Source of the DNA: Paracoccaceae bacterium
GTDB taxonomy: Bacteria; Pseudomonadota; Alphaproteobacteria; Rhodobacterales; Rhodobacteraceae
DNA: 64,000 nt
Direction: 5' to 3'
Assembly (NCBI GenBank): GCA_050633265.1
Contig: JBOEGE010000005.1
Span: 227,413-291,412 of the forward strand
The notes under the pieces: model-generated
Told to the model about the DNA's origin: nothing
The model's database searches: none
Seen by the model: only the letters and a program-made list of their open reading frames with translations
Translations under genes and position numbers: made by a program
Part shown: positions 35,988 to 64,000 of the stretch, piece by piece
Layout of the letters: the number at the start of each line of letters is the position of its first letter
How positions within the stretch are numbered: the stretch's first letter is position 1

Positions 35988-36164
35988 TGAATTGGAATGG
36001 TGAGCACGTTCTAAATTGGAATGCATGAAAGGGCTCATCTCTGAAAGGCCTTTGTTTATGGGCGATCCGACAAACGCGGGCAAAATTGGCCGATTGGCAA
36101 GAGCGGCACGTTTTATTTTGGAATAGAGCCGCTCGATGCCGCATCTCACCAAACGCGGCATCAA

Positions 36165-36818
36165 CTATGGCCACTCATGCATCGATGCGACCACTCGCCC
36201 GATGATCTCAAAATTGGCCTCATCCAATGGGAGATCGAGCTCGCGCGGTGGGTAAACCTTATTAGCGCTGATCAATGAGATGCTATCTTTGCCCGTCCTT
36301 TGGACGTGCTTGACCACCAGCTCATCCCATATCCGCACCACGTATGTGCTGCCATCGGATGGCATTGCCTGGGCGCGATCCACCAAAATCAGATCACCAT
36401 CGATCAGCTTGGGCTCCATACTGTCACCCTTGACCCGCACGATGTGGAGCATCTTGGGATCAAGGCCCTTGCCTTTGATCCAGCTCTCTTGAAACGCATA
36501 GTGCGTGATCTCCAAGGGATCAGAGACGAAAGAGCCGCCATTACCAGCACTTGCGGAAACAGTATATTTCGGCACCGTCACAAATGATGGCGAGCTCGCC
36601 GTGCTGGTTTCGGAACCAATCCCAGCCTCAAAGAGCTCATTGAGGTCCACTCCGTAAACAGTCCTCAGCGCCCCCAAGACTTCGTGATCGGCGCGCTGCT
36701 TTCCCGTTTCGATGTGTCGAATTTTGTCAGGCGACACGCCAAGCGGCTCGGCAAATGCTTCGCGAGATAGACCCATATTGCGTCTAATCTGGGAAATATT
36801 ATCATTAAATTCAGCCAT
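36165..36818 (-). CDS. phage repressor, XRE HTH + S24 (LexA/CI-like) peptidase domain
   Basis: IRRNMGLSREAFAEPLGVSPDKIRHIETGK, then VKGDSMEPKLIDGDLILVD with a downstream K in VVKHV. The gene faces outward next to the element end, as in Mu. Confidence 0.85.
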   Translation of the reverse strand: MAEFNDNISQIRRNMGLSREAFAEPLGVSPDKIRHIETGKQRADHEVLGALRTVYGVDLNELFEAGIGSETSTASSPSFVTVPKYTVSASAGNGGSFVSDPLEITHYAFQESWIKGKGLDPKMLHIVRVKGDSMEPKLIDGDLILVDRAQAMPSDGSTYVVRIWDELVVKHVQRTGKDSISLISANKVYPPRELDLPLDEANFEIIGRVVASMHEWP

Positions 36819-36827
36819 TTACAGATT

Positions 36828-36882
36828 TATTGTCCATATTGGTCAATACCCCCCTTGCTTAGAGTGTAACTATTGGTCATAT
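36828..36882. promoter_or_regulatory. candidate operators in the divergent repressor/early promoter region
   Basis: TATTGTCCA (36828), TATTGGTCA (36838) and TATTGGTCA (36871). The last two are 33 bp apart. Confidence 0.4.
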
Positions 36883-36913
36883 TCTGGCTCATGCCACCAC
36901 GGCACATCGAGAC

Positions 36914-37204
36914 ATGAGGCAACATATGACACTTTCTGACAACATCTTCCAGCCTGGAGTGATCCTGCACGAGGTTATCGCTGGCGCTTTCAAGGCAAGC
37001 GGGTCCAGTTTCGACGCATGGTGCGTCGAGAATAACGTGAACCGCACCACCGCTCGCCAAGCGACCTACGGCCAATCTGGCGGTGATCGCGGCAAAGAGC
37101 TCCTTTCCCGCATGATCAATGATGCGGGCCGTGAGGTGGTATCGATCAGCTACCGCGCCCGCATCGATGCTGAGGCTAAGCGCTGCAATGAGGCGGCGGC
37201 ATGA
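36914..37204 (+). CDS. Ner/Cro-like small DNA-binding protein (candidate lytic-switch regulator)
   Basis: First gene of the rightward operon, at the Mu ner position. FDAWCVENNVNRTTARQATYG looks HTH-like. Confidence 0.45.
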   Translation: MRQHMTLSDNIFQPGVILHEVIAGAFKASGSSFDAWCVENNVNRTTARQATYGQSGGDRGKELLSRMINDAGREVVSISYRARIDAEAKRCNEAAA

Positions 37205-37425
37205 GCTTGATTACAAACATCAAGCGCGCCGAGTGCGCCCAACGTGCCGCCGCTGAGGAGGCCCTCCAGGGCCTCTCAGATAAGGACAAGGCCAACTTTG
37301 CGTTGTCCCTGTTGATGAAAATCACAGACCCAGACGCGGCGGCGGTGGTGCGCTTTGCGGGCAGTCAGCTCGCCGAGCTCGCCAATATCCTGATGCGCGA
37401 AGCCTTTGAGCGGGAGTGCGGATAA
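37201..37425 (+). CDS. hypothetical phage protein
   Basis: 74-aa ORF with 4-nt overlaps on both sides (translational coupling). Confidence 0.5.
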   Translation: MSLITNIKRAECAQRAAAEEALQGLSDKDKANFALSLLMKITDPDAAAVVRFAGSQLAELANILMREAFERECG

Positions 37426-37691
37426 TGAGCCACGTTCCTGAGCACATCCAAAACGCCGCCTTTGAGGGTCATATGGCTACGGTCGAGACCCTCAAGGCAT
37501 CCCTGGGCCGCGCGCCTACCCATGAGGAAACGCTCCTCGCGCTGGCTGAGGCCTTTGGCGACATGATGGGCATCTATGCCGGATCAGGCGCTCAGCCCCA
37601 CCAGATCGATGCCGTGAACCGGATCGCCCAGCGAGCCTATACCACCATGCTCTCCAAGATCATGGCGCATGATTGCGAGGGCTCGGCATGA
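37425..37691 (+). CDS. hypothetical phage protein
   Basis: ATG 37425 overlaps the previous stop (TAATG). Confidence 0.5.
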   Translation: MSHVPEHIQNAAFEGHMATVETLKASLGRAPTHEETLLALAEAFGDMMGIYAGSGAQPHQIDAVNRIAQRAYTTMLSKIMAHDCEGSA

Positions 37692-37936
37692 CCGCCGTTA
37701 TTGAGGTTGAACGCTTTGGCGCGCTCGCGGTCGTCACCAGGGATGGTGTCGAGGTCTGGGGTCCTGGGCCAATCGCCCAGGCTGAGAACAAGCGAGACAC
37801 GCTGGAGCGCCAGGCGCGCCGAAAGCGCCGCCAGTGCATGACATGCAGTGACCAATTCATGAGCGAGGGAGCGCACCACAGAATGTGCGCCAAGTGCCGC
37901 TCAGGGGCGAGCGCCATCTTTGATGGTGCGGTGTAA
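37688..37936 (+). CDS. small zinc-ribbon protein
   Basis: ATG 37688 overlaps the previous stop. Contains CMTCSDQF...HHRMCAKC (CxxC...CxxC). Confidence 0.5.
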   Translation: MTAVIEVERFGALAVVTRDGVEVWGPGPIAQAENKRDTLERQARRKRRQCMTCSDQFMSEGAHHRMCAKCRSGASAIFDGAV

Positions 37937-37941: not shown

Positions 37942-40215
37942 ATGGGGCAGGCTTTGCGAAAATCAGACCTAGAGGGTGCGGATGCGCCTGGGTTCTCAAT
38001 AGTGGTTCAAGATCACATTGAGAACCCGATTGGGAACCCTTTGGGAACCCCCGAAAAGTGGCTTGATGCATCTGCCCTTTCTGATCTGGCTGGCATCGCT
38101 ATCCAAGTGGCGCGTCGTGCCATGAAATCCCGAAAGTGGCGCGGTGCCGATCTCCTGGTCCAAGAGGTCCAGATCGGGCGTGGTGGTGCTGGTGGCAAGG
38201 CGCTCCAGGTGCATGTTGATAGCTTGCCCGCCGATCTGCGCGAGAGCTGGTATATCAGCCACGGCATCACGCTCAATGAAAGGCCTGACACCGAGACCGG
38301 CAAGACGGTCCTGGTGCCAGAGCAAACCTATCAGAATGACGCGCGCTTTGAGGCCGATCTGGCCTTGGCGCGGTGGCGGCAAGAGGTGATCCGGCCCATC
38401 CTGATCCTTGAGAAAGGCTCGCCCGCGCGCGCTGAGCTGATCGAGGAGCTGGCCCAGACCCCGCGCCTATTCCCAAACGGCAACCGCAAAAAGGTGGCCA
38501 AGTCTGCACTATATAACTGGGTGCGCGATTTCGAGGCCGAGGGTTTGAATGGCCTGATCCGCAAGCGCCGCGCCGATAGCGGTGCCAAGCGCCAAAAGGT
38601 CACCCGTGCCTGGGATGCGTTCTTTGAAGCGCACATCGATGCGGCCAAGCATGCCGAGATCAGCGATGAGCTGACCACCTACATCCGATCCCTCTGGGCG
38701 GCTGGTGAGCGCGGCTGGCGCTCGGTCACTGAGAAATCCACCACCCGCCTGATCGAGATGAGCCGAGGCCTTAATGTTCTGGCCTTTGATGCGCTGGAGC
38801 TGGGCCGGTGCGGTGACACCAACGCCAAGGGCACCCAGTTCGGCCTTTGCAACGTGAACCGCCGCCAGGTGGAGCATCACCGCGAATATGCGCTCCTCGC
38901 GATCAAGGACAAAGACAACGCGGTATTCCAGGACAACTATATGCCCTCGATCCGGCGTGACTATTCCAGCCTGTTGCCGCGCCAGATTGTCGTGGGTGAC
39001 GTTCACCCAGTGGACATCATGATGCGCCGCGAGGATGGCACGGTGGTCTATCCCAAGGCGATTGCCTGGTATGATGTGGCCACCAATGAAATCCACATGA
39101 CGTTTGTGCTTTGCGAGCCTGGTGAAGGCATCCGGCGCGAGCATGTGGCCCAGAGCTTTGAGGCGATGGTCGATGAGTGGGGCCTCCCAGAGATGCTCTA
39201 TCTCGACAACGGGTCAGAGTATTCCTGGGATGCCATGATCGGCGGTTTCACCCAGCTCTCAAAGCTCACCCAGGGCGGGCTCAAAGTCTTTGATCTCGAC
39301 GGTGATCCCAATGTCGCCAAGCGCGTTGCAAATGGTCGCGAGGCGGTTGTGCGCTCGATGCCATACAACGCGAAAGGCAAGCCAGGCATCGAGGGTGCCT
39401 TTGGCAATATCGAGCAAGTCTTTTTCGCCACAATCCCTGGCTGGACCGCTGGCGACCGCATGAACAAAAAGACCCACGCCAAGGGCAAGGACCCAGTGGC
39501 CTTTGATGGTGATGCGCATGCATTCCTTGAGACCGCTGGCACCGCCCTGGAGTGGTATCACAAGCGCCCTCAGCACGGGCGGCTTGCGGGCATGAGCCCC
39601 AATGAGGCCTTGCGCAATTTCATTGATCAGGGATGGGGTAAGACAACGCTCTCGCGCCCTGAGGTTCTGGCCCTGGCCTTTGCTGAGGAGGTCGAGCGCA
39701 TGCCAGATCGCGGGCGTGTCAGCTACACCCCACGGCGCGGCGAGACCATGTATTTCTATGCGGATGAGCTCCTCGGCCTTGATCACAAGATCACGCTCAG
39801 GGTGCCCGCGTTCAATCCCGAATTTGTGTTCTGTTTCGCCGATGGTGAGCTGATCTGCCAAGCCTTCCCTGAGCAAACCTTTGGCGTCCTCGATGGCGCT
39901 GGCGCTCATGAGGTCAACCGGCGCGGCAAGGCGTTCCGCCGCCAGATCGCCGAAAAGCGCAAGCATGTGGCCCTCCTCAGTCTCACCGAGGAAACCGAGC
40001 GCCACATCGCCCACATGCCCGATGCTCCAGAGGCTCCAGTCGCCGCGATTGTGGACGCTGGGATCATCGACCGCATGGCCCGCATGCAAGGGGAAAGCCG
40101 CAAGGCGCTCTTGGATGAGGCCGAAAACAAGAAACCCAAAGGCCCAGTCGAGCAATGGAAAACAGGCCCCAATGAGGTCCTGGCTGGGTTCCAATTTGCA
40201 GAGGATGAGGAATGA
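37942..40215 (+). CDS. Mu-type DDE transposase (MuA-like)
   Basis: 757 aa. The N-terminal winged helix (KWLDASALSDLAGI..RKWRG..ALQVHVDSLPADLRESWY) matches the Mu end/enhancer-binding domain pattern. The rve-like core has VVGDVHPVDIM and LYLDNGSEY. Confidence 0.88.
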   Translation: MGQALRKSDLEGADAPGFSIVVQDHIENPIGNPLGTPEKWLDASALSDLAGIAIQVARRAMKSRKWRGADLLVQEVQIGRGGAGGKALQVHVDSLPADLRESWYISHGITLNERPDTETGKTVLVPEQTYQNDARFEADLALARWRQEVIRPILILEKGSPARAELIEELAQTPRLFPNGNRKKVAKSALYNWVRDFEAEGLNGLIRKRRADSGAKRQKVTRAWDAFFEAHIDAAKHAEISDELTTYIRSLWAAGERGWRSVTEKSTTRLIEMSRGLNVLAFDALELGRCGDTNAKGTQFGLCNVNRRQVEHHREYALLAIKDKDNAVFQDNYMPSIRRDYSSLLPRQIVVGDVHPVDIMMRREDGTVVYPKAIAWYDVATNEIHMTFVLCEPGEGIRREHVAQSFEAMVDEWGLPEMLYLDNGSEYSWDAMIGGFTQLSKLTQGGLKVFDLDGDPNVAKRVANGREAVVRSMPYNAKGKPGIEGAFGNIEQVFFATIPGWTAGDRMNKKTHAKGKDPVAFDGDAHAFLETAGTALEWYHKRPQHGRLAGMSPNEALRNFIDQGWGKTTLSRPEVLALAFAEEVERMPDRGRVSYTPRRGETMYFYADELLGLDHKITLRVPAFNPEFVFCFADGELICQAFPEQTFGVLDGAGAHEVNRRGKAFRRQIAEKRKHVALLSLTEETERHIAHMPDAPEAPVAAIVDAGIIDRMARMQGESRKALLDEAENKKPKGPVEQWKTGPNEVLAGFQFAEDEE

Positions 40216-40937
40216 GCGATTTCATAAAAACAGCCCAAGCCGAGCAAGCGTTTGAGATGTGTCAAACCGTGCTCAAGGCTCGGCCATATAGTAAGATCGG
40301 CCAGATCACCGGCGATCCAGGCACCGGCAAATCGACACTGACCAACTGGCTCGCTGATGAGTTTGAAGGGGTGCGGGTCGAGTGCTGGATGGACATGGGT
40401 GACAAGGCCCTCCTGGAGGAGATCGCAATGGGCTTGAACGCCCGTGGCGCAAGCCTCGATGTGAGCGGCACCGCGCCCACCTTATTCCGCAAGATCAAGG
40501 GTGAGTGCGCTGGCAAGCTGATCATCATCGATGAGGCCAATCAGCTCAAATGGGCCACCCTCGAAAAGCTGCGCGGCCTGTCTGACATCGGCGGCGCGGG
40601 TCTGATCCTCGCGGGCACTGACATCCTAGCCAAGCGCCTGATCGAGGCGCGGGTGCGGGTGTATCTTGCCCAGCTTCGCCAGCGGATCGGGGCCAAAAAG
40701 GTGCTGATGAAACCCATCACCGATGATGCCGAGCTCGCCGCTTATGTGATCGCGCCACGCTTTGGGCAGGTCACCAAGGGCACCGCCAAGCGGTTCCGCA
40801 TCCTGACCCAAGGCCAGTGGCGCTCAGCGCTGGAGCTGGCCGATGCATGCGAGCGCCTGATGGCCAATGAGGGCATCACCAAGATCAATGAGCGCGTGGT
40901 CGAGACCGCCGCCGCATGGATGGCGGGGAGGAGCTGA
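40212..40937 (+). CDS. MuB-like AAA+ ATPase (transposition target-capture protein)
   Basis: Walker A GDPGTGKST and Walker B LIIIDEAN. Immediately follows and overlaps the transposase gene. Confidence 0.8.
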   Translation: MSDFIKTAQAEQAFEMCQTVLKARPYSKIGQITGDPGTGKSTLTNWLADEFEGVRVECWMDMGDKALLEEIAMGLNARGASLDVSGTAPTLFRKIKGECAGKLIIIDEANQLKWATLEKLRGLSDIGGAGLILAGTDILAKRLIEARVRVYLAQLRQRIGAKKVLMKPITDDAELAAYVIAPRFGQVTKGTAKRFRILTQGQWRSALELADACERLMANEGITKINERVVETAAAWMAGRS

Positions 40938-41826: not shown

Positions 41827-42441
41827 ATGCAAAATGATGAAATCCCAAAGGGTTATATGAAGAACGCCGAGGGCGCTCTGATGCCCATCAACAAGGTGAA
41901 ACCCGCTCATATCCAAGAGGATAAGACGGTGCGCCGCCTGATCGATCAAGCCAAGGCGGTGAGCGCCCAGCTTGCCAAGTTCAAGGCTGATGCGATGGGC
42001 GATGCCCAGGCATTCCGCGCCATGATCGCCGATCAATACGGTGCCACCAAAGGCGGTGCCAAGGGCAACATGACCCTGCGCTCCTATGACGGTGAGATGA
42101 TGGTCCAGGTCCAAGTCTCTGAGACCATCGATTTCGGTGTCGAGCTGCAAGCGGCCAAAGAGCTGATCGATGAGTGCATCGGCAAGTGGTCCAAGGGCTC
42201 CAATAACAACATCAAGGTGCTGGTGAATGACGCTTTCCGCGTCAACAAAGAGCGCAACATCGACACGGGCCGAGTGCTCGGCCTTCGCCGCCTGGAGATC
42301 GATGATCCGATCTGGGCCAAGGCGATGGATGCGATCTCTGATGCCGTTCGGGTGACCGGATCGCGCAGCTACATCCGCTTCTATGAAACCGATCTTGAGG
42401 GTGGCCGCAAGGCGATCCCTCTGGACCTGGCATCGGTCTAA
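41827..42441 (+). CDS. DUF3164-family protein (common in Mu-like early regions)
   Basis: ATG 41827. The IPKGYMKNAEGALMPINKVKP..DK.V pattern plus position make this a recollection-level match. Confidence 0.6.
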   Translation: MQNDEIPKGYMKNAEGALMPINKVKPAHIQEDKTVRRLIDQAKAVSAQLAKFKADAMGDAQAFRAMIADQYGATKGGAKGNMTLRSYDGEMMVQVQVSETIDFGVELQAAKELIDECIGKWSKGSNNNIKVLVNDAFRVNKERNIDTGRVLGLRRLEIDDPIWAKAMDAISDAVRVTGSRSYIRFYETDLEGGRKAIPLDLASV

Positions 42442-42491: not shown

Positions 42492-42764
42492 ATGACAAAA
42501 GCAGACCTTTTGAAAGCCATCTCAGCCGATGCCGGTGAAACCGCCGCAACCGTTGATGCGGTCCTGACATCCCTGGCCAACGTCACATCCAAGGCGCTCG
42601 GCGAGGGTGAGGATGTGACCATCCCAGGCTTGCTCAAGCTCGACACGAAAGAGCGCGCCGCCCGCAAAGGCCGCAACCCCAAGACTGGCGAGGAGATCGA
42701 CATCGCCGCCAAGACCGTTGTTTCGGTGAAGGTCCTCAAGGGCCTGGCTGATCACGTCGCCTAA
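42492..42764 (+). CDS. HU/IHF-family DNA-binding protein, phage-encoded
   Basis: MTKADLLKAIS...VTIPGLLKLDTKERAARKGRNPKTGEEIDIAAKTVVSVKVLKGL. Confidence 0.9.
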   Translation: MTKADLLKAISADAGETAATVDAVLTSLANVTSKALGEGEDVTIPGLLKLDTKERAARKGRNPKTGEEIDIAAKTVVSVKVLKGLADHVA

Positions 42765-43357: not shown

Positions 43358-43852
43358 ATGAGCAACCCAAAGACATCCCCACAGCGCCGCAATAGCGATC
43401 TGGCTATGATCCATATCGGAGCCAAGCGGCTCTTTGGTGATGTCTCAAAAGGGGGCGATGGCCGCGAGGCCTATGAGGATTGGCTGGAGCGCCACACTGG
43501 CAAACGCTCGGCGGGCAAGCTGACCACCGGCCAGCGCATCGATCTGATCAAGATGATGCGCAAGGATGGCCTGATCCCTGATCGATCCATTGGCGGCAAA
43601 GGTCCCACGGCGGGTGGCGAGGAGCGCCCGACATCATCCCAGTGGGCCAAGATCGCGGCGCTTGGCCGTGCAATGGGCTGGGCGCAAGGCCTGGAGGATG
43701 AGCGCTTGCGGTCCTTTGTGAAGCGCACCGCCAAGGTCAGCTCCACCAAGTTCCTGAGCCGCACCCAGGCGAGCAAGGTGATCATGGGCCTGGAGGTCTG
43801 GGTCGCCGAGCGCCAGGACCTCAATGAGGGGGGCGGCAATGCAGTGTCCTAA
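43358..43852 (+). CDS. gemA: GemA/gp16-like protein (DUF1018)
   Basis: DLAMIHIGAKRLFGD...YEDWLERHTGKRSAGKLT..QRIDLIKMMRKDG....QWAKI.AL...GW. Confidence 0.7.
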   Translation: MSNPKTSPQRRNSDLAMIHIGAKRLFGDVSKGGDGREAYEDWLERHTGKRSAGKLTTGQRIDLIKMMRKDGLIPDRSIGGKGPTAGGEERPTSSQWAKIAALGRAMGWAQGLEDERLRSFVKRTAKVSSTKFLSRTQASKVIMGLEVWVAERQDLNEGGGNAVS

Positions 43853-44051
43853 ATGTGGTGGCCGCGCCTACGTCTATGCGACCAAGCCAGCCGGAACCCT
43901 CAAACAACGCTATCGCCAATGCCGCATATGCGGCCACCGCTTCTCCACTTGGGAGGAGATCGAGGATCGCGAATTGCGCGGATATGAGAGCGCGAAAAAG
44001 GCACTCGCGCCCGATCTTTTTGAAACCGCCGATACCGCGAAAGCCAAGTGA
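43839..44051 (+). CDS. Ogr/Delta-type zinc-finger protein (candidate late transcription activator)
   Basis: MQCPKCGG...YRQCRICGHRFSTWEEI, with CxxC-N21-CxxC spacing as in P2 Ogr. Overlaps the gemA end by 14 nt. Confidence 0.55.
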   Translation: MQCPKCGGRAYVYATKPAGTLKQRYRQCRICGHRFSTWEEIEDRELRGYESAKKALAPDLFETADTAKAK

Positions 44052-44052
44052 A

Positions 44053-44391
44053 ATGGGGGCGAGAGGCAAGGGCCGTGTAGCGGCACCCGCTGCACACCCC
44101 TTGGCGGGGATCGGGCACAATGGCGCGCCCGATGATGAGGCGCTCACCCTCGATGATCTGGCCATGCGCCTCTTTGAGGTGATTGGCCCGCGCGCTGATC
44201 TGGAGATCGAGCCCTTTGAATGCGGAGCGCCCTGGACCGCCCATGCGACCGAGGAGGAGCTCAAGCGCCTCGGCACCCTCCAGGCCCGCATCATCCGCCG
44301 CGAGCAAGCGCTCAAAGAGCTCAAGGCCGAGCGCAAGCGGATCATGAATAGAAACATCCGGCGCATGCGCCGAGCTGATGGCAAAGAGTGA
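44053..44391 (+). CDS. hypothetical phage protein (basic C-terminus)
   Basis: ATG 44053, 1 nt after the previous stop. Contains GIGHNGAPDD and a C-terminal coiled/basic RKRIMNRNIRRMRR. Confidence 0.45.
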   Translation: MGARGKGRVAAPAAHPLAGIGHNGAPDDEALTLDDLAMRLFEVIGPRADLEIEPFECGAPWTAHATEEELKRLGTLQARIIRREQALKELKAERKRIMNRNIRRMRRADGKE

Positions 44392-44404: not shown

Positions 44405-44608
44405 ATGGAAGAATATGAAGCTCTGGTGGCGGCGATTGTAATGATCGACGGCGCAATTCAGAACCTTGAGGACGTCGATCACGAAGGGCCAGCCCGTATT
44501 ATTTTGAATGACACTCGCAACGTGTTGAATGCTGAGCGCGTGGCTATGCTGGGGAACGGGGCGCAACGCCCGTTCTCGGCTCTTGAGGCTCTGGAGGGAA
44601 AGCAATGA
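44405..44608 (+). CDS. hypothetical phage protein
   Basis: ATG 44405 has a strong AAGGAG 7 nt upstream. An alternative ATG exists at 44378. Confidence 0.45.
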   Translation: MEEYEALVAAIVMIDGAIQNLEDVDHEGPARIILNDTRNVLNAERVAMLGNGAQRPFSALEALEGKQ

Positions 44609-46465: not shown

Positions 46466-46496
46466 GGGCGGGATCTGATACGGTCCCGCCCTTTTC
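46466..46496. terminator. terminator hairpin between convergent phage operons
   Basis: GGGCGGGA-N10-TCCCGCCC followed by TTTT. Confidence 0.7.
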
Positions 46497-48355: not shown

Positions 48356-48381
48356 CGGTCATTCCTTTCGAGGTTGAGGGC

Positions 48382-54883: not shown

Positions 54884-54892
54884 GGACCGTTC

Positions 54893-55866: not shown

Positions 55867-56216
55867 GTGTGATTGGCCTTAACGCAAACAACGGGCGCGC
55901 CATCGATGGCCTGGATCACTTGCGCCAATCGGTGCGCGACATCCTGATCACGCCCCTGGGATCGCGCGTCATGCGCCGTGACTATGGGTCTGGGCTCTTT
56001 GAGCTCATCGATGCCAACCTGACACCGCTCACCCTGGCGCTGATCTATGCGGCCACCGTCGATGCTCTGCGCAAGTGGGAGCCTCGCTTGCGGGTCACTC
56101 GCGTCCAGGCCGAGGCCTTGCCTGAGGAGCTGGAGGCTGGGCGCATCTCGATCACCCTTGATGGGCAATATCTGCCCAGCGGTGAGGAAATCCGGCTGGA
56201 TGGGGTGGTGCTATGA
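55863..56216 (+). CDS. baseplate protein gpW/gp25 family
   Basis: LRQSVRDILITPLGSRVMRRDYGSGLFELID. Confidence 0.8.
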   Translation: MSVIGLNANNGRAIDGLDHLRQSVRDILITPLGSRVMRRDYGSGLFELIDANLTPLTLALIYAATVDALRKWEPRLRVTRVQAEALPEELEAGRISITLDGQYLPSGEEIRLDGVVL

Positions 56217-57205
56217 GGTTCACGGCCATCAACCTCGACCGCTTGCCCGCGCCTCAGATCATCGAGCAACCTGATTTCGAGACCATCTTTGCCGCTCGCA
56301 AGGCCCGCCTGATCGAGCTTGCGCCACACCTTGCGCCAGCTCTGGAGCTGGAGAGTGAGCCGCTGGTCAAGCTCCTCCAGGAGGATAGCTATCGCGAGCT
56401 CATCTTGCGCGCCGCCGTTCAAGACGCGGGCGCTGGAAACCTTTTGGCCTATGCCTCCGGTGCGCTTCTTGACCACCTCGCCGCCTTTTATGGGGTCGAG
56501 CGGTTGGTGATCCAAGAGGCTGATGCATCGGTGAGCCCTCCCATCGAGGAGGTCCTGGAGGATGATGCCCGCTTGCGTGCCCGCGTCCAGCTTGCGCCTG
56601 AGGGGTTCACCACCGCTGGCTCAATCGGCTCTTACTTGTTCTGGGCGCTTAGCTCGTCTGCGTTTATCAAGGATGTGGACATCCGTGCTCCTCGGTTTTC
56701 AAAAGCCGAGATCGCGCCGGAATTGCAGGCCCAGCTACCTGAAAGCGCGATTGTTTTAGTCGTTGATGATGATGCTGGCTTGGAAAACCCGATGCCTGGG
56801 GATGTGGCTCTCTCGGTTTTGTCCAGCCAAGGTAATGGCGTTCCTTCTGCTGAGTTGATCGATGGGGTTCTCGCAACAACTTTGCCCCGCCGCCCTTTGA
56901 CAGATCGGCCAATCGCAAAGGCCGCGATCATCCAGGAATACACCGTCGAGGCCGAGCTGATCCTCTATGATGGGCCTGATGCTGAGCTGGTGCGCCAGGC
57001 ATCCGTTGCCGCCGTTCAAGCCTTTGTCGATGAGCATCATCGCCTCGGCCATGACATCACCATCGCGGGCTTGCATGCCGCGCTTTACCGCGAGGGCGTC
57101 CAGGACATCCACATCACCGCCCCCGCTGCAACTCTTGAGATCGGGAGCGATACCGCCGCGCATTGCACCCAGATCACCGTAACCGTGGGAGGCCGCGATG
57201 TCTGA
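56213..57205 (+). CDS. baseplate J-like protein
   Basis: Size, position after gpW, and the N-terminus LPAPQIIEQPDFETIFAARKARL. Confidence 0.75.
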   Translation: MRFTAINLDRLPAPQIIEQPDFETIFAARKARLIELAPHLAPALELESEPLVKLLQEDSYRELILRAAVQDAGAGNLLAYASGALLDHLAAFYGVERLVIQEADASVSPPIEEVLEDDARLRARVQLAPEGFTTAGSIGSYLFWALSSSAFIKDVDIRAPRFSKAEIAPELQAQLPESAIVLVVDDDAGLENPMPGDVALSVLSSQGNGVPSAELIDGVLATTLPRRPLTDRPIAKAAIIQEYTVEAELILYDGPDAELVRQASVAAVQAFVDEHHRLGHDITIAGLHAALYREGVQDIHITAPAATLEIGSDTAAHCTQITVTVGGRDV

Positions 57206-57872
57206 TATTGATCGCCTTTTGCCGCCAAGCGCCACCACCTCTGAGCGCGCCATCGAGACCGTGATCGCTGAGCGCACCATCGGCATCAAGGCCCCAATCG
57301 CCACGCTTTGGAATGTGGATACATGCCCTGAGGAGCTCTTGCCCTGGATGGCTTGGGCGTTCTCGGTCGAGGTCTGGGATCATGCCTGGTCTGAAACCAT
57401 CAAGCGCAATGTCATCCGCAACTCGATCCAAGTGCATCGCATGAAAGGCACCCGCCGCGCGGTGGAGCTGGCCCTGGAAGCGCTTGAGATGCGCATCGAT
57501 CTGCATGAGGGCTTTGAGCTTGATGAGCACGGCGATCCTTATGGCCCGCCCCATACCTTCACCCTCGACGCCTTTGCTGAGGACATCTTTGACGCTGGGT
57601 TTCAGATCAATCCCAAGCTGCATGCCCTGGTCACTGAGCTGATCCGCAACGTCAAGCCCGTGCGCTCTCACTTCACCTTGCGCATCGGCGAAAAGCGCGG
57701 CGGCACCGTCACCGTGCGCACCGGATCACACCAGCGGCTCAAGGATGAGCGCCAGGTCACACCGGCCTTGCCGATCGATACCCATGCGCCGCGCCTATCC
57801 GCCCGCTCTGGCCACCGCCAAACCGCCGTGAGCCATCACATCCACCGCTTTGATATGGGAGACGCCGCATGA
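57198..57872 (+). CDS. tail protein I (P2 gpI family)
   Basis: LLPPSATTSERAIE....LWNVDTCPEELLPWMAWAFSVEVWD..W.E..KR.VI..SI.VHR.KGT. Confidence 0.8.
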   Translation: MSDIDRLLPPSATTSERAIETVIAERTIGIKAPIATLWNVDTCPEELLPWMAWAFSVEVWDHAWSETIKRNVIRNSIQVHRMKGTRRAVELALEALEMRIDLHEGFELDEHGDPYGPPHTFTLDAFAEDIFDAGFQINPKLHALVTELIRNVKPVRSHFTLRIGEKRGGTVTVRTGSHQRLKDERQVTPALPIDTHAPRLSARSGHRQTAVSHHIHRFDMGDAA

Positions 57873-58393
57873 CCGCTGGCACCGACATCCTGACTACCAA
57901 GGGCATCACGAAAATCCGCAATGCAGCGGGATCGGGGAGCCAGGTCAAAATCAAATACATCGCCCTCGGTGATGGCCAGGGCGCGGGCTATGCGCCCAAT
58001 CCGGCCCAGGTCACCTTGCGCCGCGAGCTCCTGCGCACCGAGATCGAGCGTCACTATCCGGTTGGCTCCAATGCCTGGCACGTCAAGGCCAGTTTCCCAA
58101 CGGATGCCACGGCGATCACCGTGCGCGAGATGGGTTTCCTCGATGAGGATGGCGATCTGATCGCGCTCTGGGCTGGTGCCGATGTGGGTGATGATCGGCG
58201 CACGGGTGTGATCGAGTATCTGATCGCCCACGTTCTGGCCTTTGATGGCATCGCCGATGGTATCCTGGTCGTGGATGCGCCGCTCGATGAATACCTCGAT
58301 CACGCGGTGCTCAAGCTCACCACTGATGCCATCCAAACTGACCTCTTGCTCAAGCAAGCCAAACAATTCCGCGATCTCGGTATCGCCGCATAA
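57869..58393 (+). CDS. tail fibre protein, collar/N-terminal (gpH N-terminal-like) domain only
   Basis: LTTKGITKIRNAAGSGSQVKIKYIALGDG.....P.P.QV.L..E......MGFLDEDGDLIALW. Confidence 0.65.
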   Translation: MTAGTDILTTKGITKIRNAAGSGSQVKIKYIALGDGQGAGYAPNPAQVTLRRELLRTEIERHYPVGSNAWHVKASFPTDATAITVREMGFLDEDGDLIALWAGADVGDDRRTGVIEYLIAHVLAFDGIADGILVVDAPLDEYLDHAVLKLTTDAIQTDLLLKQAKQFRDLGIAA

Positions 58394-58408
58394 AGGAGGA
58401 TTTCCACA

Positions 58409-59191
58409 ATGGACCCGATGCAAAACCTGAACAACGCGGCGGATGCCCTGAACCAAGTGGCCCAGCGGGCCGGTGGGTTCTGGGATGATGCCGATGCGCA
58501 AATCGCGCAACGCCAAGCGGCTTACGATGCTCTTGGCGCTGATCTGGTCAATGTTGTCAATGATCGGATGTATTTCCCCGCAACGATTGACCCTGATGAT
58601 CCCAACCCCACGAATGAGCGCGGTGGAGTGTTTACCACCCTTGGCGCTGCGATCAATGCGGCTCCGTCTGGTTCTTACATTGTTGTCTCACTGTTGGCCG
58701 GAAAGACCCACAACCTCGATGCCAGCGTGTGGATCACCAGTAAGACGATTGTGGTCACGCGCACTGGTGGGGGCGATAACCCTGTGGTGATGATTGGAAA
58801 CACGTCCAACGGCGCGACAAATTCGCCAGTTCGGTTAAACTCAGGCGCAATGGCGGCAATCCGTTTCGTGAACGTCGATATTGAGTATGCGCCGAAAACG
58901 GATGCCGGATTGCCTTGGGCGGCTTCGCCCCTTTGTGCGCCATCCTATGGGACCCAAATCTTTGTGTCTTTGTATGGGGTGAGCGTGACTGGGCCAGCCG
59001 AGGCATTCCTGGTCAGCACCTATGCCGGTTCAACCGCCTTTCTCAATCTTGGCGTGGTGGGCTTGGATGGGGTGAATGGCGCTCAGGTGTCACTCGGGAT
59101 GCTGGTCGTAGGTCAATACAACGTCTCTTTGGCCAACGGCTCACAAATCCATGCTGGCGGCACAGTCGGCACGAATGTCCTGATCAACTGA
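58409..59191 (+). CDS. putative distal tail fibre / receptor-binding protein
   Basis: Assigned by position after the collar domain. The middle region is beta-rich with a repetitive G/N/T/V composition. Confidence 0.4.
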   Translation: MDPMQNLNNAADALNQVAQRAGGFWDDADAQIAQRQAAYDALGADLVNVVNDRMYFPATIDPDDPNPTNERGGVFTTLGAAINAAPSGSYIVVSLLAGKTHNLDASVWITSKTIVVTRTGGGDNPVVMIGNTSNGATNSPVRLNSGAMAAIRFVNVDIEYAPKTDAGLPWAASPLCAPSYGTQIFVSLYGVSVTGPAEAFLVSTYAGSTAFLNLGVVGLDGVNGAQVSLGMLVVGQYNVSLANGSQIHAGGTVGTNVLIN

Positions 59192-59201
59192 GGAGCTGAC
59201 T

Positions 59202-59708
59202 ATGAATTTCGACATCACATATGAGGGCCGCACAACGCTGGCGGTTGACTATGAAGGTGCAATCGCACTTGGGTATCCGGTTGCCGTCATTGGTGTGGCG
59301 CTTAAAGGTGCGGCAAAGGCTGAGATCGCTGCCTTTGCTGAGGTTTACCGCAACAAAATCACCCACGCCACGGCGGGCAAGCTGGCCGAATATCGGATCA
59401 AAGAGGAGATCGCCCGCGATCCTGCTAGCGCCTCTGAAGCTGAGCTTGAGACCCTGAGCCGCGAGGCAAAGGCGCGCGGCACCAACCGCACCGGCCTGAT
59501 CGGCCAGATCAACGCCCAATCCGCCGCCTATCGCCAGATCGCGCTCCTGATCGGTGCGCTTGAGGCCGAGGCTGGTGCTGGTATCGCCCTCATCCCAGAT
59601 GATGCGCCTGACATCGAAACCCAAATTTCCACCGTGCTTGGGGCTGCAAAGGCCCAGGCTGAAACGGCCTTCAATGAGGCCCTTGCTCTGATCAATGGAG
59701 GTTCCTAA
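59202..59708 (+). CDS. hypothetical tail-associated protein (fibre assembly position)
   Basis: Assigned by position between the fibre and sheath genes. Alanine-rich and helical. Confidence 0.35.
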   Translation: MNFDITYEGRTTLAVDYEGAIALGYPVAVIGVALKGAAKAEIAAFAEVYRNKITHATAGKLAEYRIKEEIARDPASASEAELETLSREAKARGTNRTGLIGQINAQSAAYRQIALLIGALEAEAGAGIALIPDDAPDIETQISTVLGAAKAQAETAFNEALALINGGS

Positions 59709-60877
59709 TGCCTGAGCAATTTCTCCACGGCGTCGAGGTTGTCGAGATCGACACCGGCACACGCCCAATCCGCACCGTGCGCTCCTCGGTCATTGGCCTG
59801 GTGGGCACCGCCCCTGATGCTGATGCCGCCAAGTTCCCGCTGAATACGCCTGTCCTTGTGGCTGGCAAGCGCTCTGATGCCGCTGGCTTGGGAGCCACTG
59901 GCACCCTGGCACCGGCCATCGATGACATCTTTGACCAGGTTGGGGCCGTTGTGGTCGTGATCCGCGTCGAGGAAGGCGCTGACGATGCCGCCACGCTGAG
60001 CAATATCATCGGCGGCACCGACGATGTGACCGGCCAGCCTGAGGGCTTGCAAGTGCTCCTGGCCGCTGAGAGCGTGGTCAAGGTCGCGCCCCGCATCATC
60101 GTGGTCCCTGAGTTCTCTCAGGAGCAAGCGGTGGTTTCTGAGCTGGTCTCGATTGCCACTAAGCTGCGCGCCGTGATCATCGCGGATGGCCCCAACTCGA
60201 CCGATGCGGATGCCATCACATACCGTGAAAACTTTGGTTCTGATCGCATCTATCTGGTCGATCCTTGGGTCAAGGTCTGGGATACTGAAACCAGCACCGA
60301 GATCGTGCGGCCCGCATCCGCCCGCGTGGCTGGTGTGATCGCCAAGTCCGATGCTGAGCGTGGTTTCTGGCACTCGCCATCCAACCGCCTGATCGATGGG
60401 ATCACCGGCACCGCCCGTGCCATCGATTTCACCCTGGGTGACGCGACATCGCGGGCCAACATTCTCAATGAGAATGAGGTCACCACCATCATCCAGCGGG
60501 ATGGCTATCGCCTTTGGGGCAACCGCACCCTGAGCGCTGATCCCAAGTGGGCAATGCTCAAGCGCCGCCGCGTGGCTGACATGATCAATGAGAGCATCAT
60601 GCAAGCCCATTTCTGGGCGGTGGATCGCAATGCGGATCGCACCTATTTCGAGGACGTGATCGAGGGCGTGAACGCTTACGGGCGACGCATGATCACCGTG
60701 GGTGCCTTGGTGGGCTTCAAATGCTGGGCCGATCCTGATCTCAACACGCCTGAGGCGCTTGAGGCTGGCAAGGTCTACTTTGACTATGACTGGGTGGAAA
60801 CGCCCACCGCCGAGCACATCACTTTCCGTTCCATGATCAACAATGGCTACCTGTCTGAGGTCCTGCCAACGGCCTAA
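59708..60877 (+). CDS. contractile tail sheath protein (gpFI family)
   Basis: MPEQFLHGVEVVEIDTGTRPIRTVRSSVIGLVGTAP, and near the C-terminus RDGYRLWGNRTLS. Confidence 0.88.
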   Translation: MPEQFLHGVEVVEIDTGTRPIRTVRSSVIGLVGTAPDADAAKFPLNTPVLVAGKRSDAAGLGATGTLAPAIDDIFDQVGAVVVVIRVEEGADDAATLSNIIGGTDDVTGQPEGLQVLLAAESVVKVAPRIIVVPEFSQEQAVVSELVSIATKLRAVIIADGPNSTDADAITYRENFGSDRIYLVDPWVKVWDTETSTEIVRPASARVAGVIAKSDAERGFWHSPSNRLIDGITGTARAIDFTLGDATSRANILNENEVTTIIQRDGYRLWGNRTLSADPKWAMLKRRRVADMINESIMQAHFWAVDRNADRTYFEDVIEGVNAYGRRMITVGALVGFKCWADPDLNTPEALEAGKVYFDYDWVETPTAEHITFRSMINNGYLSEVLPTA

Positions 60878-60892
60878 GGAGGGCTTATTCCA

Positions 60893-61399
60893 ATGCGTGA
60901 TCTTCTGAAATTCATGAATACCTTTGTCGATGGCTACGGCTTTGCCGGTGTGGCCTCGGCGGTGGAGGTGCCCAAGATCGAGGTCGCAACCCGCGATTTC
61001 TCGGCGGCGGGCATGGCTGGCCCCATCGAGGTGCGCATGGCGCGCCTGGCCAACGCGCTCACGGCCAAGCTGACCTTTGAAGGCTTTGACCCGCATCTCT
61101 ATGAGACGCTGGACATCACCGAGGGCTCGCTGATCCCCTTCACCTGTAAGGGTTCAACCGAGGACGGTGACGGGGCAACGCATGCGCACAATGTGGCAAT
61201 GCGCGGTTTCACCAAGGTCCTGGATGAGGGTGAGTGGAAGGATGGCGAAAGCGTCCCGCTCAAGCTCGATATGAGCCTGCGCTATTACCGGCGCGAGCGC
61301 GATGGCGTGGAGCTCTTTGAAATTGACCAGGAAAACATGATTTTCCGCGTCAAAGGCAAGGACCTCTTGGCCGAGCACCGCGCCAATATTGGCCGCTGA
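60893..61399 (+). CDS. tail tube protein (gpFII family)
   Basis: LKFMNTFVDGYGFAGVASAVEVPKIE..T.DF.AGGM.GPIEV. Confidence 0.85.
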   Translation: MRDLLKFMNTFVDGYGFAGVASAVEVPKIEVATRDFSAAGMAGPIEVRMARLANALTAKLTFEGFDPHLYETLDITEGSLIPFTCKGSTEDGDGATHAHNVAMRGFTKVLDEGEWKDGESVPLKLDMSLRYYRRERDGVELFEIDQENMIFRVKGKDLLAEHRANIGR

Positions 61400-61412
61400 G
61401 GGGAGCTGACAC

Positions 61413-61706
61413 ATGGCACATACTGAAACCTATGAGCTCCAATACCCCTTCACCCACAAGGGTGAGGAGGTCACCGAGCTGACCATCCGCCGCCCCAAGA
61501 TGCGCGACCTCAAGAAGTTCGAGGGGATCAAGGACAAGATGAAAAAGAGCTTCACCATGCTCTCTGATCTTGCCGAGATCGGCCCCGATACCGTGGAGGA
61601 GCTGGACCCCGTTGATTTCAACGCGGCCTCGGTGATGATCGCGGGTTTTTTGGGCGTATCGGAGGAGGAAATCCAAAAGATTTCAGGGCAATTTCCCTCT
61701 TCATGA
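61413..61706 (+). CDS. tail assembly chaperone gpE
   Basis: YELQYPFTHKGEEVTELTIRRPKMRDLKKF, positioned between the tube and tape-measure genes. Confidence 0.8.
   Translation: MAHTETYELQYPFTHKGEEVTELTIRRPKMRDLKKFEGIKDKMKKSFTMLSDLAEIGPDTVEELDPVDFNAASVMIAGFLGVSEEEIQKISGQFPSS
61646..61652 (+). other. -1 programmed frameshift slippery heptamer T_TTT_TTG
   Basis: The gpE zero frame reads GGT TTT TTG. The -1 frame is open from 61652 to 61825. Confidence 0.7.
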
Positions 61707-61825
61707 GCCGACACTTCCACTGGCAACCATCCGAGATTGATGCGTTGCCAGTGGATGAGCTCCTCGATGCCTTCGAGGATGCCAAAGACTATCTGAGAAT
61801 TGAGGCGGAGGCGCGAAACTCATGA
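61652..61825 (+). CDS. gpE' extension (E+E' fusion = 61413..61652 joined to 61652..61825 by -1 frameshift)
   Basis: The -1 frame gives GRIGGGNPKDFRAISLFMSRHFHWQPSEIDALPVDELLDAFEDAKDYLRIEAEARNS. The FHW.P.E...L motif is typical of GpE' proteins. Confidence 0.7.
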   Translation, partial: GRIGGGNPKDFRAISLFMSRHFHWQPSEIDALPVDELLDAFEDAKDYLRIEAEARNS

Positions 61826-64000
61826 TCCCTACAAGTGTTGGCGTCGATGTCCTTGTGAGCCTGGCAGACAGGCTCACAGCCCCCCTCAGGAATGCCGAGG
61901 ATACCGTGGCCAGAGCCAGCGAGCGCATGCAAAAGCGCCTGGCCTTGTCTATGAAACTGGCGGGCGGTGGTGCCGCCGCCGCTGGCATCGCCTACGGTGC
62001 GCAACGCCTGGTCACAGGCTTCACCGATAGCATCCGCGATGTGGAGCGCGCCAAGGGCGAGCTGGCCACCTTGGGTGTGCGCGACCTCGATGCCGTGGTG
62101 CGCCGTGGCCAGGAGATGCAAATGCAGCTTGCGGGTGTCACGGCGGATGCCTTTGTGCGCGCTTCTTATGACATCAAGTCTGGGATCAGCTCACTCACCG
62201 ATCAGGGCGTGGCCGATATGACCGCCTCGGCCATGTTGGTGGCCAAGGCGACCAAGGGCCAAGCTGAGCAAATGACCTCCCTTTTTGCGACCTCTTACGG
62301 GATTTTCAAAAAGCAGATGGAGGACCTTACTGACGCGGAATTTGGCGAGCAATTTGGCGCGGCTCTTTCGGCCTCGGTGCAACAATTCAAAACCGATGGC
62401 GCAGCGATGCAACAGGCCATCGAGAGCGCGGGCGCGGGTGCTGTCAATCTCGGCATGGATATGACCGAGCAACTCACCCTCCTGGGTATGATGCAACAAC
62501 AGATGCAGGCCGGTGAGGCTGGCACAGCCCTGCGCGCTTTTGCGACCAACGCCGCCAAAGCACATGAGGCCTTTGGCAAGATGCAAGTGAGCGCGGATCG
62601 CCCCGTGCGGGTGCGCATCCTGGATGAGAATGGCGGATTGCGGGACATGCCTGACATCCTGGCCGATCTCCAGGCGCGCTATGGCGAGACCCTTGATGCC
62701 TTTGAGGCGGCTGAGATCAAAGAGGCCTTTGGCACCGATGAGGCCATGAAAATGATCAACGCCCTCTATGGCCAGGAGGCGGCGGTGCGCGCCAATGCTG
62801 ATGCGCTCGATGATGCGGCTCAGCAAGGCTCTGAGTTCACCTCAGTGATGGCCGCTGCCGCTGATAACAACTGGGATGCCACAATGGTGCTGATGTCCCA
62901 AAAGATGGACGTGATCACCCAAAAGATTGGCGAGCGCCTCTTGCCCGTTGTGCAACGCCTGGTGCCCTATATCGACGCTTTCATCGCCACCGCCTTTGAC
63001 TGGATCGATGCCAACCCAGAGCTGATCACTGGGATCGGCGGGGTGGTCGTGGGCTTGGGTGCTCTTGCGGCGGTGATCGCGCCCATCCTGATCGGCGCGG
63101 GTGCGCTGGTGAGCGGATGGGCCATGATGAGCTTTGGGGCCACCAAGCTGGTGCTGAGCCTGGCGGGCATGGCCAAATGGGTGCTGGGCGCGGGCAAAGG
63201 CCTCTTGTGGCTCGGTCGCACCGTGCTCCCATTGGTGGGCAAGGCCGTGCTCTTTCTGGGCCGTGCGCTCATCGCCAACCCTATAGGCGCAATCATCATG
63301 GCCATCGCAACGGCGGCTTATCTTATCTATGAATATTGGGAGCCGATTGCCGATTTCTTTACAGGGCTTTGGGATCAGATCGGTGGCGATGTTATGGCCG
63401 CTTGGGAGTTGATAAAGTCGGTTTTCCTCAATTACACGCCCGCTGGTTTGATCTACTCCCATTGGGAAGGGATCACGGGTTTCTTTGGGCGGCTCTGGGA
63501 TCGCATCAAAGGCGGTGTGAGCGCGGGCTGGGAGCTGATCAAATCCACGTTCCTCAACTATCATCCGGTGGGCTTGATCCTATCGAATTGGGATAGCATC
63601 GCCGAGACCTTTGCGGGCTACTGGGATAGCATCAAAACCGGCGTTTCCACTGGCTGGGAGGCCATCAAGTCACGCTTGGCTGGGTTCTCGCCTGCCACCA
63701 CAATCACCAACGCCTGGTCTGGGATCAGCTCGACATTTTCGGGCTACTGGGATGCCATCAAAACCGGCGTTTCCACTGGCTGGGATGCGATCAAGACGCT
63801 CTTTCTGGACTATCACCCACTCGGCCTGATCATTTCCAACTGGAGCTCCATTGCTGGCACCTTTGCGGGATACTGGACCTCGATCAAGGACGGGATCGCA
63901 ACGGGCTGGGAGGCCATCAAAACCAAGCTCGGCGAGTTCGGACCCGCTGCCCTGATTGAGGCAACCTGGGCAGGTGTGGTTGATTGGTTTGGATCGCTTT
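61822..64000 (+). CDS. tail tape measure protein (partial, runs off the window; not in the ORF track)
   Basis: ATG 61822 overlaps the E' stop (ATGA), and I translated it by hand with no stop to 64000. The core contains TADAFVRASYDIKSGISSL...QMQAGEAGTALRAF, then TM-like segments and W-rich repeats. Confidence 0.85.
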   Translation, partial: MIPTSVGVDVLVSLADRLTAPLRNAEDTVARASERMQKRLALSMKLAGGGAAAAGIAYGAQRLVTGFTDSIRDVERAKGELATLGVRDLDAVVRRGQEMQMQLAGVTADAFVRASYDIKSGISSLTDQGVADMTASAMLVAKATKGQAEQMTSLFATSYGIFKKQMEDLTDAEFGEQFGAALSASVQQFKTDGAAMQQAIESAGAGAVNLGMDMTEQLTLLGMMQQQMQAGEAGTALRAFATNAAKAHEAFGKMQVSADRPVRVRILDENGGLRDMPDILADLQARYGETLDAFEAAEIKEAFGTDEAMKMINALYGQEAAVRANADALDDAAQQGSEFTSVMAAAADNNWDATMVLMSQKMDVITQKIGERLLPVVQRLVPYIDAFIATAFDWIDANPELITGIGGVVVGLGALAAVIAPILIGAGALVSGWAMMSFGATKLVLSLAGMAKWVLGAGKGLLWLGRTVLPLVGKAVLFLGRALIANPIGAIIMAIATAAYLIYEYWEPIADFFTGLWDQIGGDVMAAWELIKSVFLNYTPAGLIYSHWEGITGFFGRLWDRIKGGVSAGWELIKSTFLNYHPVGLILSNWDSIAETFAGYWDSIKTGVSTGWEAIKSRLAGFSPATTITNAWSGISSTFSGYWDAIKTGVSTGWDAIKTLFLDYHPLGLIISNWSSIAGTFAGYWTSIKDGIATGWEAIKTKLGEFGPAALIEATWAGVVDWFGSL
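63337..64000 (+). repeat. 126-bp (42-aa) in-frame tandem repeats within the tape measure gene, 5 full units plus a partial one
   Basis: Units start at 63337, 63463, 63589, 63715, 63841 and 63967. The protein consensus is W(E/D/S)xIxxxFxG(Y/L)WDxIKxGVSxGW(E/D)xIKxxFLxYxPxGLIxSN. Units 3 and 4 share long near-identical DNA stretches. Confidence 0.9.

Follow-up and report, generated by a model that had tools for sequence, protein, structure and literature searches.

An intact-looking temperate myovirus prophage with a Mu-type transposition arm and a P2/PBSX-type virion arm in a Paracoccaceae bacterium

Results

Extent and ends of the prophage

We examined a 64,000-nucleotide stretch of the metagenome-assembled genome of a marine Paracoccaceae bacterium (GenBank assembly GCA_050633265.1, contig JBOEGE010000005.1 of 709,461 bp, positions 227,413 to 291,412 of the forward strand), referred to throughout as the window. 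Its right-hand part appears to hold one complete, intact-looking temperate myovirus prophage, a single mobile element in which a Mu-type transposition arm is joined to a P2/PBSX-type virion arm. The prophage is predicted to run from 35973 to about 66.6–67.4 kb, for a total of about 30.6–31.5 kb, so that the last ~3 kb would lie beyond the window. Every sizeable open reading frame (ORF) from 36.1 to 64 kb was scanned against the Pfam, PHROG and NCBIfam families, and relatives were collected using the transposase, the large terminase (TerL), the tube protein and the gpD-like protein as queries. IMG/VR prophage entries are clipped at gene boundaries, short of both ends.

The left terminus is T35973, TGGGGGGGATCGGAAT, where the likeness among seven aligned left flanks begins abruptly; an earlier note on this DNA, made from its letters only, had set the boundary at 35988. 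A second copy of the left-terminal 16-mer was not found in the window. For the right terminus, 12 right flanks of relatives were aligned and likeness stops abruptly at ...AAATTTGGTCCGGTCCA, about 72 bp past the gpD-like gene; right-end likeness among the relatives stops at ...GGTCCGGTCCA. The right end of the window element itself, ...TTGGTCCGGTCCA, is predicted at 66.6–67.4 kb, to be followed by GCAA, and thus lies past position 64000, the last of the window. Exact look-up of the window's tube protein returned only a 6.5-kb Logan contig, and the window's right end was not retrieved in this way. There is no record of the window's transposase as a called gene, and the GTDB representatives do not include the window's genome, their best match being 91% identical. 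Past the window, the relatives carry the tape measure (~1070 aa), gpU, gpX and gpD, and nothing more before the right end.

The termini are of the TG...CA form: the left begins TGGGG... and the right in relatives finishes ...GTCCA. In all three relatives having both ends a 4-bp target duplication abuts these termini:

Sulfitobacter delicatus FNBP01000005: duplication GAAT, element of 31,472 bp
ERZ27315451 k141_24111: duplication CTGT, element of 31,422 bp
JBNKPH010000019: duplication TCTC, element of 31,106 bp

The chance of three perfect 4-bp matches is ~(1/256)^3, and none of the three extends to the 5 bp that had been expected earlier. The element in the closest metagenome contig measures ~30.6 kb. 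At least 12 different right flanks were seen among relatives, representing many unrelated insertion sites. At the left end of the window element the following features were assigned:

35969–35972 (no strand): predicted left copy of the 4-bp target duplication, GCAA, from the relatives' duplications; the right copy would lie beyond the window
35973–36164 (+): left end (attL-like), terminal TGGGGGGGATCGGAAT, from flank alignment and repeats

Two 32-nt composite repeats (35991–36022 and 36093–36124) lie within the left 190 bp and carry three direct WTTGGAATR sites that are presumed to be bound by the transposase, and a unit similar to the composite repeat is present at the relatives' right end. 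No internal copy of either end was found within the window. An ORF at 35414–35972 (−) without a Pfam match stays open to and across the left junction, and a host gene has probably lost its 5' part to the insertion there.

None of the ORFs scanned in the window matched an integrase or recombinase family, as the earlier note had stated, nor did any past gpD in the relatives; replication-initiator, helicase-loader and origin-type gene families were likewise without a match in any ORF scanned, no excisionase or att site was found, and the 64-kb window holds no tRNA gene. The earlier view of a single prophage rather than two was upheld, there being no integrase, second repressor or internal ends between the arms.

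Genes of the early arm

The transposition and regulatory genes, the minor head gene that follows them and the terminator that closes the unit are as follows:

36165–36818 (−): repressor with helix-turn-helix (HTH) and peptidase S24 domains, LexA/CI-like (Peptidase_S24 8.6e-24; HTH_31; phrog_4 repressor 1.5e-44)
36914–37936 (+): four small early ORFs of 96, 74, 91 and 87 aa (position, family scans)
37942–40215 (+): MuA-family DDE transposase, TnpA, 757 aa (phrog_310 2.2e-52; PDB 4FCY 3.5e-4)
40212–40937 (+): MuB-like AAA+ transposition ATPase, TnpB (AAA_22 1.7e-15; phrog_296 "DNA transposition protein" 1e-33)
41827–42441 (+): DUF3164 protein (PF11363 3e-74; start placed by 204-aa relatives)
42492–42764 (+): HU-type DNA-bending protein (Bac_DNA_binding 6.6e-25)
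43358–43852 (+): GemA (PF06252 4.7e-20)
43824–44051 (+): Ogr/Delta-type zinc-finger protein (PF04606, 34.9 bits against a cut-off of 26.3)
44605–45522 (+): MuF/SPP1 gp7-like minor head protein (PHROG minor-head families, 1e-11 to 1e-13)
45715–46299 (+): Bro-N/anti-repressor-like gene (Bro-N 9e-10; phrog_5060 Ant 2.5e-28)
46466–46491 (+): strong stem-loop terminator (10-bp stem with 8 G-C pairs, then a T run)

The family scans bore out the outward-facing S24 repressor, 757-aa transposase, MuB-like ATPase, DUF3164 and GemA named beforehand. The repressor, transcribed toward the left end, is probably self-cleaving. TnpA shares 23% identity with MuA across 419 aa, and its residues D353, D422 and E484 align with MuA D269, D336 and E392; the PDB entry that it matched, 4FCY, is the Mu transpososome structure. 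The Pfam DDE_2 match of TnpA alone is sub-threshold; the transposases of relatives carry Mu-transpos_C. For the Mu winged-helix N-terminus that had been claimed for the transposase, only weak matches were obtained. The gene for TnpB, which is 28% identical to MuB, adjoins that of TnpA. DUF3164 is typical of Mu-like early regions. Among the small early ORFs, the one at 36914–37204 (96 aa) lies where Mu has ner and had been called Ner-like; the position holds, with no family match to go with it. The 87-aa ORF has cysteine pairs consistent with a zinc ribbon, and the relatives carry a zf-dskA_traR gene there.

The Ogr/Delta gene, missed in the earlier note, is 95% identical to an S. delicatus gene with the same Pfam call, and its product is presumed to be a late-gene activator of the P2 type that takes the place of Mor/C of Mu; no ORF scanned matched Mor/C (PF08765). 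A reading of 43855–44391 as one gene was dropped: it masks the Ogr gene and a 112-aa gene at about 44053–44391. The MuF-like protein is recognised by the PHROG families and falls slightly below the curated cut-offs (Pfam 25.6 against 29.6; TIGR01641 39.1 against 39.65); it is encoded apart from the portal and has no BLAST similarity to Mu gp30. The terminator separates two convergent transcription units. One relative (ERZ22666005 k127_30864369, a 30,582-bp contig whose transposase shows 51% identity; our L071) carries a Mu Gam gene at 6365–6892.

Genes of the late arm

Beyond the terminator, the genes form a leftward unit and a rightward unit that diverge from a common intergenic region. The leftward unit comprises, in map order:

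46495–49412 (−): distal part of the portal-TerL operon (Phage_lysozyme 3.4e-34, DUF1353, PHROG)
47537–48355 (−): lysozyme with N-terminal membrane segment (Phage_lysozyme; 32% identical to Mu gp22)
49409–51145 (−): TerL with N-terminal HTH, Terminase_6N ATPase and Terminase_6C nuclease, gpP-like build (Pfam)
51161–52462 (−): portal, PBSX/HK97 type, PF04860 (Phage_portal 1.8e-27)
52463–52598 (no strand): putative divergent late control region of the portal and protease operons (sequence read)

In the order of transcription these are portal, TerL, orf139, orf189 (189 aa), lysozyme, orf119, DUF1353 and orf68 (68 aa). By analogy with the pP/pO region of P2, both units would be controlled from 52463–52598. 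The portal has as its best NCBIfam match TIGR01540 portal_PBSX, below that model's cut-off; it is 23% identical to P2 gpQ over 254 aa, has no BLAST similarity to Mu gp29 and is not of the Mu DUF935 type. TerL is closer to P2 gpP (26% identity over 561 aa, 2e-30) than to Mu gp28 (25% over 197 aa, ATPase part only) by direct comparison. Close homology of these two proteins to Mu gp29 and gp28, which had been put forward as grounds for giving up the joined-arm view, was thus not encountered. No gpM-like or other small terminase subunit was detected by PHROG, Pfam or NCBIfam among the ORFs beside TerL or after the capsid gene, and the N-termini of TerL and TnpA show no similarity, so no shared DNA-binding domain was seen. 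Database names for TerL conflict: JGI and UniProt give "Mu-like prophage FluMu protein gp28", one Phaeobacter inhibens record gives "terminase ATPase subunit", which is the gpP name, and PGAP gives the cluster mates a generic name.

The product of orf139 (139 aa) resembles HK97 gp10 by eye only, and its gene stays next to that of TerL down to a relative of 43% identity. Within the lysis region at 47132–48355 (−), the N-terminal hydrophobic segment of the lysozyme matches DUF7940 and, weakly, a holin PHROG, and a separate holin was not identified there by Pfam or PHROG. The orf119 product, encoded after the lysozyme, has a lipoprotein signal (LTVAGC) and is spanin-like.

The rightward unit comprises:

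52599–53525 (+): XkdF-type head maturation protease/scaffold (Peptidase_S78_2 2e-29; phrog_3017 4e-32)
53522–54457 (+): major capsid protein, P2 family, distant (Phage_cap_P2 28.9 bits against a cut-off of 27; phrog_1623 9e-39)
54461–55399 (+): two head-completion/head-tail joining ORFs of 140 and 168 aa (position; weak adaptor match; kept in relatives)
55396–57872 (+): baseplate V (spike), W, J and I (Pfam; 29–41% identity to P2)
57869–59708 (+): tail fibre N-terminal gene with ORFs of 260 and 168 aa (Phage_tail_fib 4.8e-14)
59708–61399 (+): tail sheath (FI) and tail tube (FII) (Pfam; 41% and 39% identity to P2 FI and FII)
61413–61823 (+): tail chaperones E and E' (Phage_TAC_7 1.6e-16; slip heptamer T_TTT_TTG)
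61822–64000 (+): tape-measure protein, running off the window (PhageMin_Tail 2.3e-17)

The arrangement described in the earlier note was borne out: a portal and a gpP-type terminase with HTH are divergent from protease and capsid, the lysis genes lie downstream on the minus strand, and V-W-J-I, fibre, FI, FII, E/E' with an in-phase TTTTTTG and the tape measure follow on the plus strand. The capsid is recognised as P2-family by hidden Markov model only, slightly above the cut-off; PGAP names its cluster mates "P2 family phage major capsid protein", and it has no BLAST similarity to Mu gpT. The 260- and 168-aa ORFs of the fibre region, which have no family match, may encode a distal fibre part or a chaperone. 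The heptamer at 61646–61652 is in the X_XXY_YYZ phase, and the −1 frame is open to 61823, overlapping the tape-measure ATG; the number of such heptamers, 12 against an expectation of 14, does not in itself exceed chance.

Relatives and age of the lineage

The same architecture is found in many Rhodobacteraceae genomes. The 90% TerL cluster includes Phaeobacter inhibens, P. piscinae, Tritonibacter mobilis, Sulfitobacter delicatus, Cognatishimia and Ca. Rhodobacter oscarellae, and at least eight IMG/VR contigs of 29–34 kb carry both the transposase (70–96% identity) and TerL (80–98%). Carrier contigs of matching length (49,231 and 47,095 bp) in the transposase and the TerL tables suggest further co-occurrence of the two genes. 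A prophage of the betaproteobacterium Tibeticola sediminis has repressor, TnpA, MuB, GemA, zinc ribbon and MuF in its early part, followed by lysis, TerL and portal genes in the opposite direction and then by XkdF protease, capsid, V, J and I. Its late proteins are 39–49% identical to those of the window (TerL 49%, portal 41%, capsid 46%, and MuF, encoded in the same position, 39%); its transposase is only 22% identical. Because the same order and such late proteins are kept in Tibeticola, this type of TerL would seem to be habitually coupled to transposition. In an outgroup at 43% TerL identity (L033) the head block is in common and the remaining ORFs have no Pfam match.

Because the architecture is kept across the Rhodobacteraceae and Tibeticola, it is that of an old, stable lineage of transposable phages and not a recent mosaic. 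The word "mosaic" in the earlier note thus fits insofar as Mu-type and P2/PBSX-type arms are combined; a recent join is contradicted by the conservation of the combination. Among the isolated phages of INPHARED there is no member of the lineage: the best TerL matches are P2-like phages at 25–28% identity, and the only transposase matches, with 26% identity and covering 30% of the protein, are Bacillus phage BalMu-1 and Faecalibacterium phage Mushu. Megablast of the 24-kb core against PLSDB plasmids and INPHARED phages gave no match. In the open literature (subscription papers lay outside the search) we found only classical Mu-like phages described, and not this lineage.

Every long contig starts at the left end and is collinear with the prophage map. 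It is common for contigs to break off at the element ends or no more than tens of bases from them, and many carrier contigs are of 30–33 kb. No junction of right end and left end (right end, 0–12 nt, left end) was found in IMG/VR contigs. A lone match to this pattern in JGI metagenomes lies inside an unrelated high-GC coding region and was rejected as chance.

With regard to target choice, four independent insertions, including one of an element whose right end is divergent, have the same host motif of ~40 bp directly after the 4-bp target (right flanks L052:11042-11085, L053:11041-11085, L054:7973-8010 and L066:3041-3085 of the fetched loci; for example, target CCAG and then CCCCCCAACCCCCCCGGGATATTTCCAAACCGGAGAAG). 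Looser versions occur at L047:11041-11080 and in the left flank of L060 at ~2420-2477, and a regex search for the motif, which has the form C5-6 N3-4 C5-6 ..GGRTATTT, turned up no further copy over the window and 0.93 Mb of fetched loci. This suggests a motif-directed choice of target, unlike that of Mu.

Discussion

Comparison with known systems

The Mu-like phages taken for comparison were those of the proposed "Saltoviridae" (Mu, SuMu, B3, D3112, BcepMu and RcapMu). Reference transposable phages have genomes of 36–39 kb and 5- or 6-bp duplications, Mu- and B3-like phages have TG-CA ends, and Mor/C and the Mu-type head set (DUF935 portal, gpI protease, gpT capsid) are core genes of the reference group (PMC8705779). 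Like the Mu-like phages, the window element has a leftward repressor at its left end, a rightward MuA-family transposase, MuB-like ATPase, small ORFs and GemA, TG...CA ends with a short duplication at many sites and no integrase, and a lysozyme related to Mu gp22. It differs from them in a duplication of 4 bp rather than 5 or 6, in a size of ~31 kb rather than 36–39 kb, and in an Ogr/Delta protein instead of Mor/C; further, portal, capsid and protease are of non-Mu types, the late genes lie in two divergent operons at mid-map, and the transposase is only 23% identical to MuA. The lineage therefore goes with the reference transposable phages in its transposition features and departs from them in size, duplication, regulator and head.

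Burkholderia phage KS10, in which the MuF-portal-terminase-lysis block is opposite to the transposition genes, shows that gene order can depart from that of Mu (PMC2628397). The opposite-strand block is common to KS10 and the window element, whereas a Mu-type head is found in KS10 only, which keeps a BcepMu gp29-like portal, D3112-like TerL/TerS, Mor and a B3-like capsid; its authors found no TG..CA ends and no direct repeats (PMC2628397).

With P2 and the Peduoviridae the window element shares the divergent portal-terminase and scaffold-capsid operons, a TerL of gpP build, T_TTT_TTG in E, an Ogr-type regulator, and the V-W-J-I and FI-FII-E/E'-T-U-D tail sets (W, J, I, FI and FII 38–41% identical, V 29%). 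Features of P2 that are lacking from the window and from the scanned right end of relatives are the tyrosine integrase, attP, the Cox/C switch and gpA/gpB rolling-circle replication. The window element differs further in that no gpM was found, an XkdF-type protease takes the place of gpO, portal precedes TerL (P then Q in P2), the lysis genes come after TerL, gpX is placed between U and D, and a MuF-like gene is present. The likeness to Bacillus PBSX, which consists of the portal (TIGR01540 best match) and the XkdF-family protease, does not go beyond family level; PBSX has a different gene order and is without a transposition module. BalMu-1 and Mushu have a detectable relative of TnpA; their hosts are Firmicutes and there is no DNA similarity. 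The similarities outside the tail are all distant, and the label of a Mu arm plus a P2/PBSX arm seems a fair one.

Replication and packaging

Because the element has a transposase and MuB and no initiator, integrase or excisionase, it would most likely integrate and replicate by transposition like Mu. The likeliest mechanism is replicative transposition combined with headful packaging out of integrated copies, and we regard this account as a whole as probable. Indirect support comes from the lack of a right-left junction in IMG/VR and JGI metagenome contigs, from the collinearity of the long contigs with the prophage map and from the frequent contig breaks at the element ends. SOS-type cleavage of the S24 repressor would let the rightward early operon express TnpA and MuB, and these, aided by the phage HU protein, would copy the genome into new chromosomal sites. 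The Ogr/Delta protein would then turn on the two late operons, leftward portal-TerL-lysis and rightward protease-capsid-baseplate-tail. Since no free replicon would be made, the gpP-like terminase would have to act on integrated copies, and its N-terminal HTH may serve to recognise a site close to one end of the element, because no separate small subunit was found to do so. A P2-sized head would be filled; if it held ~33.6 kb (the P2 record), 2–3 kb of host DNA would join the ~31-kb genome, as in Mu. Infecting linear DNA would integrate by way of a 4-bp staggered cut made by the transposase.

Several points weigh against this account. Neither Gam of Mu nor Mor/C is present in the window element; the nearest TerL relatives among characterised phages are the cos-packaging P2-like phages, at 25–28% identity; no small terminase subunit or pac site was identified; and the right end and duplication of the window element are known only by prediction from relatives. 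The breaks of contigs at the element ends could equally reflect strain heterogeneity in the metagenomes.

The P2-like side of the element is what an alternative cycle would build on, in which the transposase and MuB serve integration (perhaps excision) only, and the induced genome leaves the chromosome, replicates as a circle or concatemer by host functions and is cut at cos or pac, giving virions without host DNA. The gpP build of TerL, whose best characterised matches are cos-type P2-like phages, the P2-like tail module and Ogr regulator, and a length of ~31 kb within the size range of the matched P2-like records (29.7–37.6 kb) are all in its favour. Such a circular, cos-type cycle nevertheless lacks support because no replication genes were found: there is no replication initiator, helicase loader, origin-type gene, excisionase or integrase among the ORFs scanned. 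The two large contig collections hold no right-left junction, the long contigs follow the prophage map from its left end, and MuB, GemA and DUF3164 together are a set carried by replicative transposable phages (PMC8705779). The earlier note had raised as an open question how a transposing genome with a gpP-type terminase, a type known from cos packaging, is packaged. The puzzle was overstated, and the worry over cos is weakened because identity to gpP is 26%, gpM is missing and TerL consistently travels with transposition modules. We consider the circular cycle unlikely.

Less likely still is a domesticated or defective prophage, for instance a producer of a tailocin or GTA-like particle, that is no longer mobile. 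Gene transfer agents (GTAs) are a known feature of the Rhodobacteraceae (PMC4062626), there is a deleted derivative (L013, below), and INPHARED holds no isolated virion of the lineage; against this, every head, tail, lysis, transposition or repressor ORF in the window is open, the element ends are conserved and sharply bounded, close relatives at many sites with intact 4-bp duplications indicate recent movement, and relatives are found as virus-sized metagenome contigs. The different family affinities of the two arms, their convergent transcription and the strong terminator between them might also be explained by two independent neighbours, a Mu-like remnant and a separate P2/PBSX-like prophage. 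This is refuted by the shared ends, and we give it hardly any weight: one TG..CA pair with its target duplication encloses both arms in three genomes, no ends, integrase or second repressor lie between or within the arms, and the arrangement is kept from the Rhodobacteraceae to Tibeticola.

A more tentative proposal, which we put forward only as a possibility, is that the lineage may have solved the packaging of transposed, integrated copies independently of Mu. A P2-type terminase may read a site at an element end with its own HTH, then either package by headful or produce unit-length DNA by cutting both ends; 4-bp staggered integration and a preference for a specific C-rich host motif over near-random targets may go along with this.

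The transposition core is kept in this lineage and nearly all else is swapped, suggesting that the link between replicative transposition and a Mu head is not obligatory. The elements are common in ecologically important roseobacters (Phaeobacter, Sulfitobacter, Tritonibacter), and the architecture reaches the Betaproteobacteria. Such phages would cause insertional mutations in marine bacteria and might also mediate transduction there; prophage finders and searches that look for Mu head genes or rely on size may overlook them or place their bounds wrongly; and culturable hosts exist in which packaging of integrated DNA by a P2-type terminase could be tested.

Two atypical elements were also seen. 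The deleted derivative L013 (IMGVR_UViG_3300033128_000035, 1-5364) has the C-terminus of the transposase and MuB joined to a tape-measure fragment, and continues with gpU, gpX, the gpD-like region over two ORFs and a normal right end, for a total of 5.4 kb; either the decay of a copy or an assembly artefact could account for it. In Pseudomonas helleri CP181271 (9058-21203; L072/L073) no portal or terminase was called in a compact Mu-like element of ~11 kb, which may be a degraded prophage or satellite-like. Its transposase is 37% identical to that of the window, and it carries a repressor, MuB, GemA, two Mor genes, a Mu gpT capsid gene and a tape measure.

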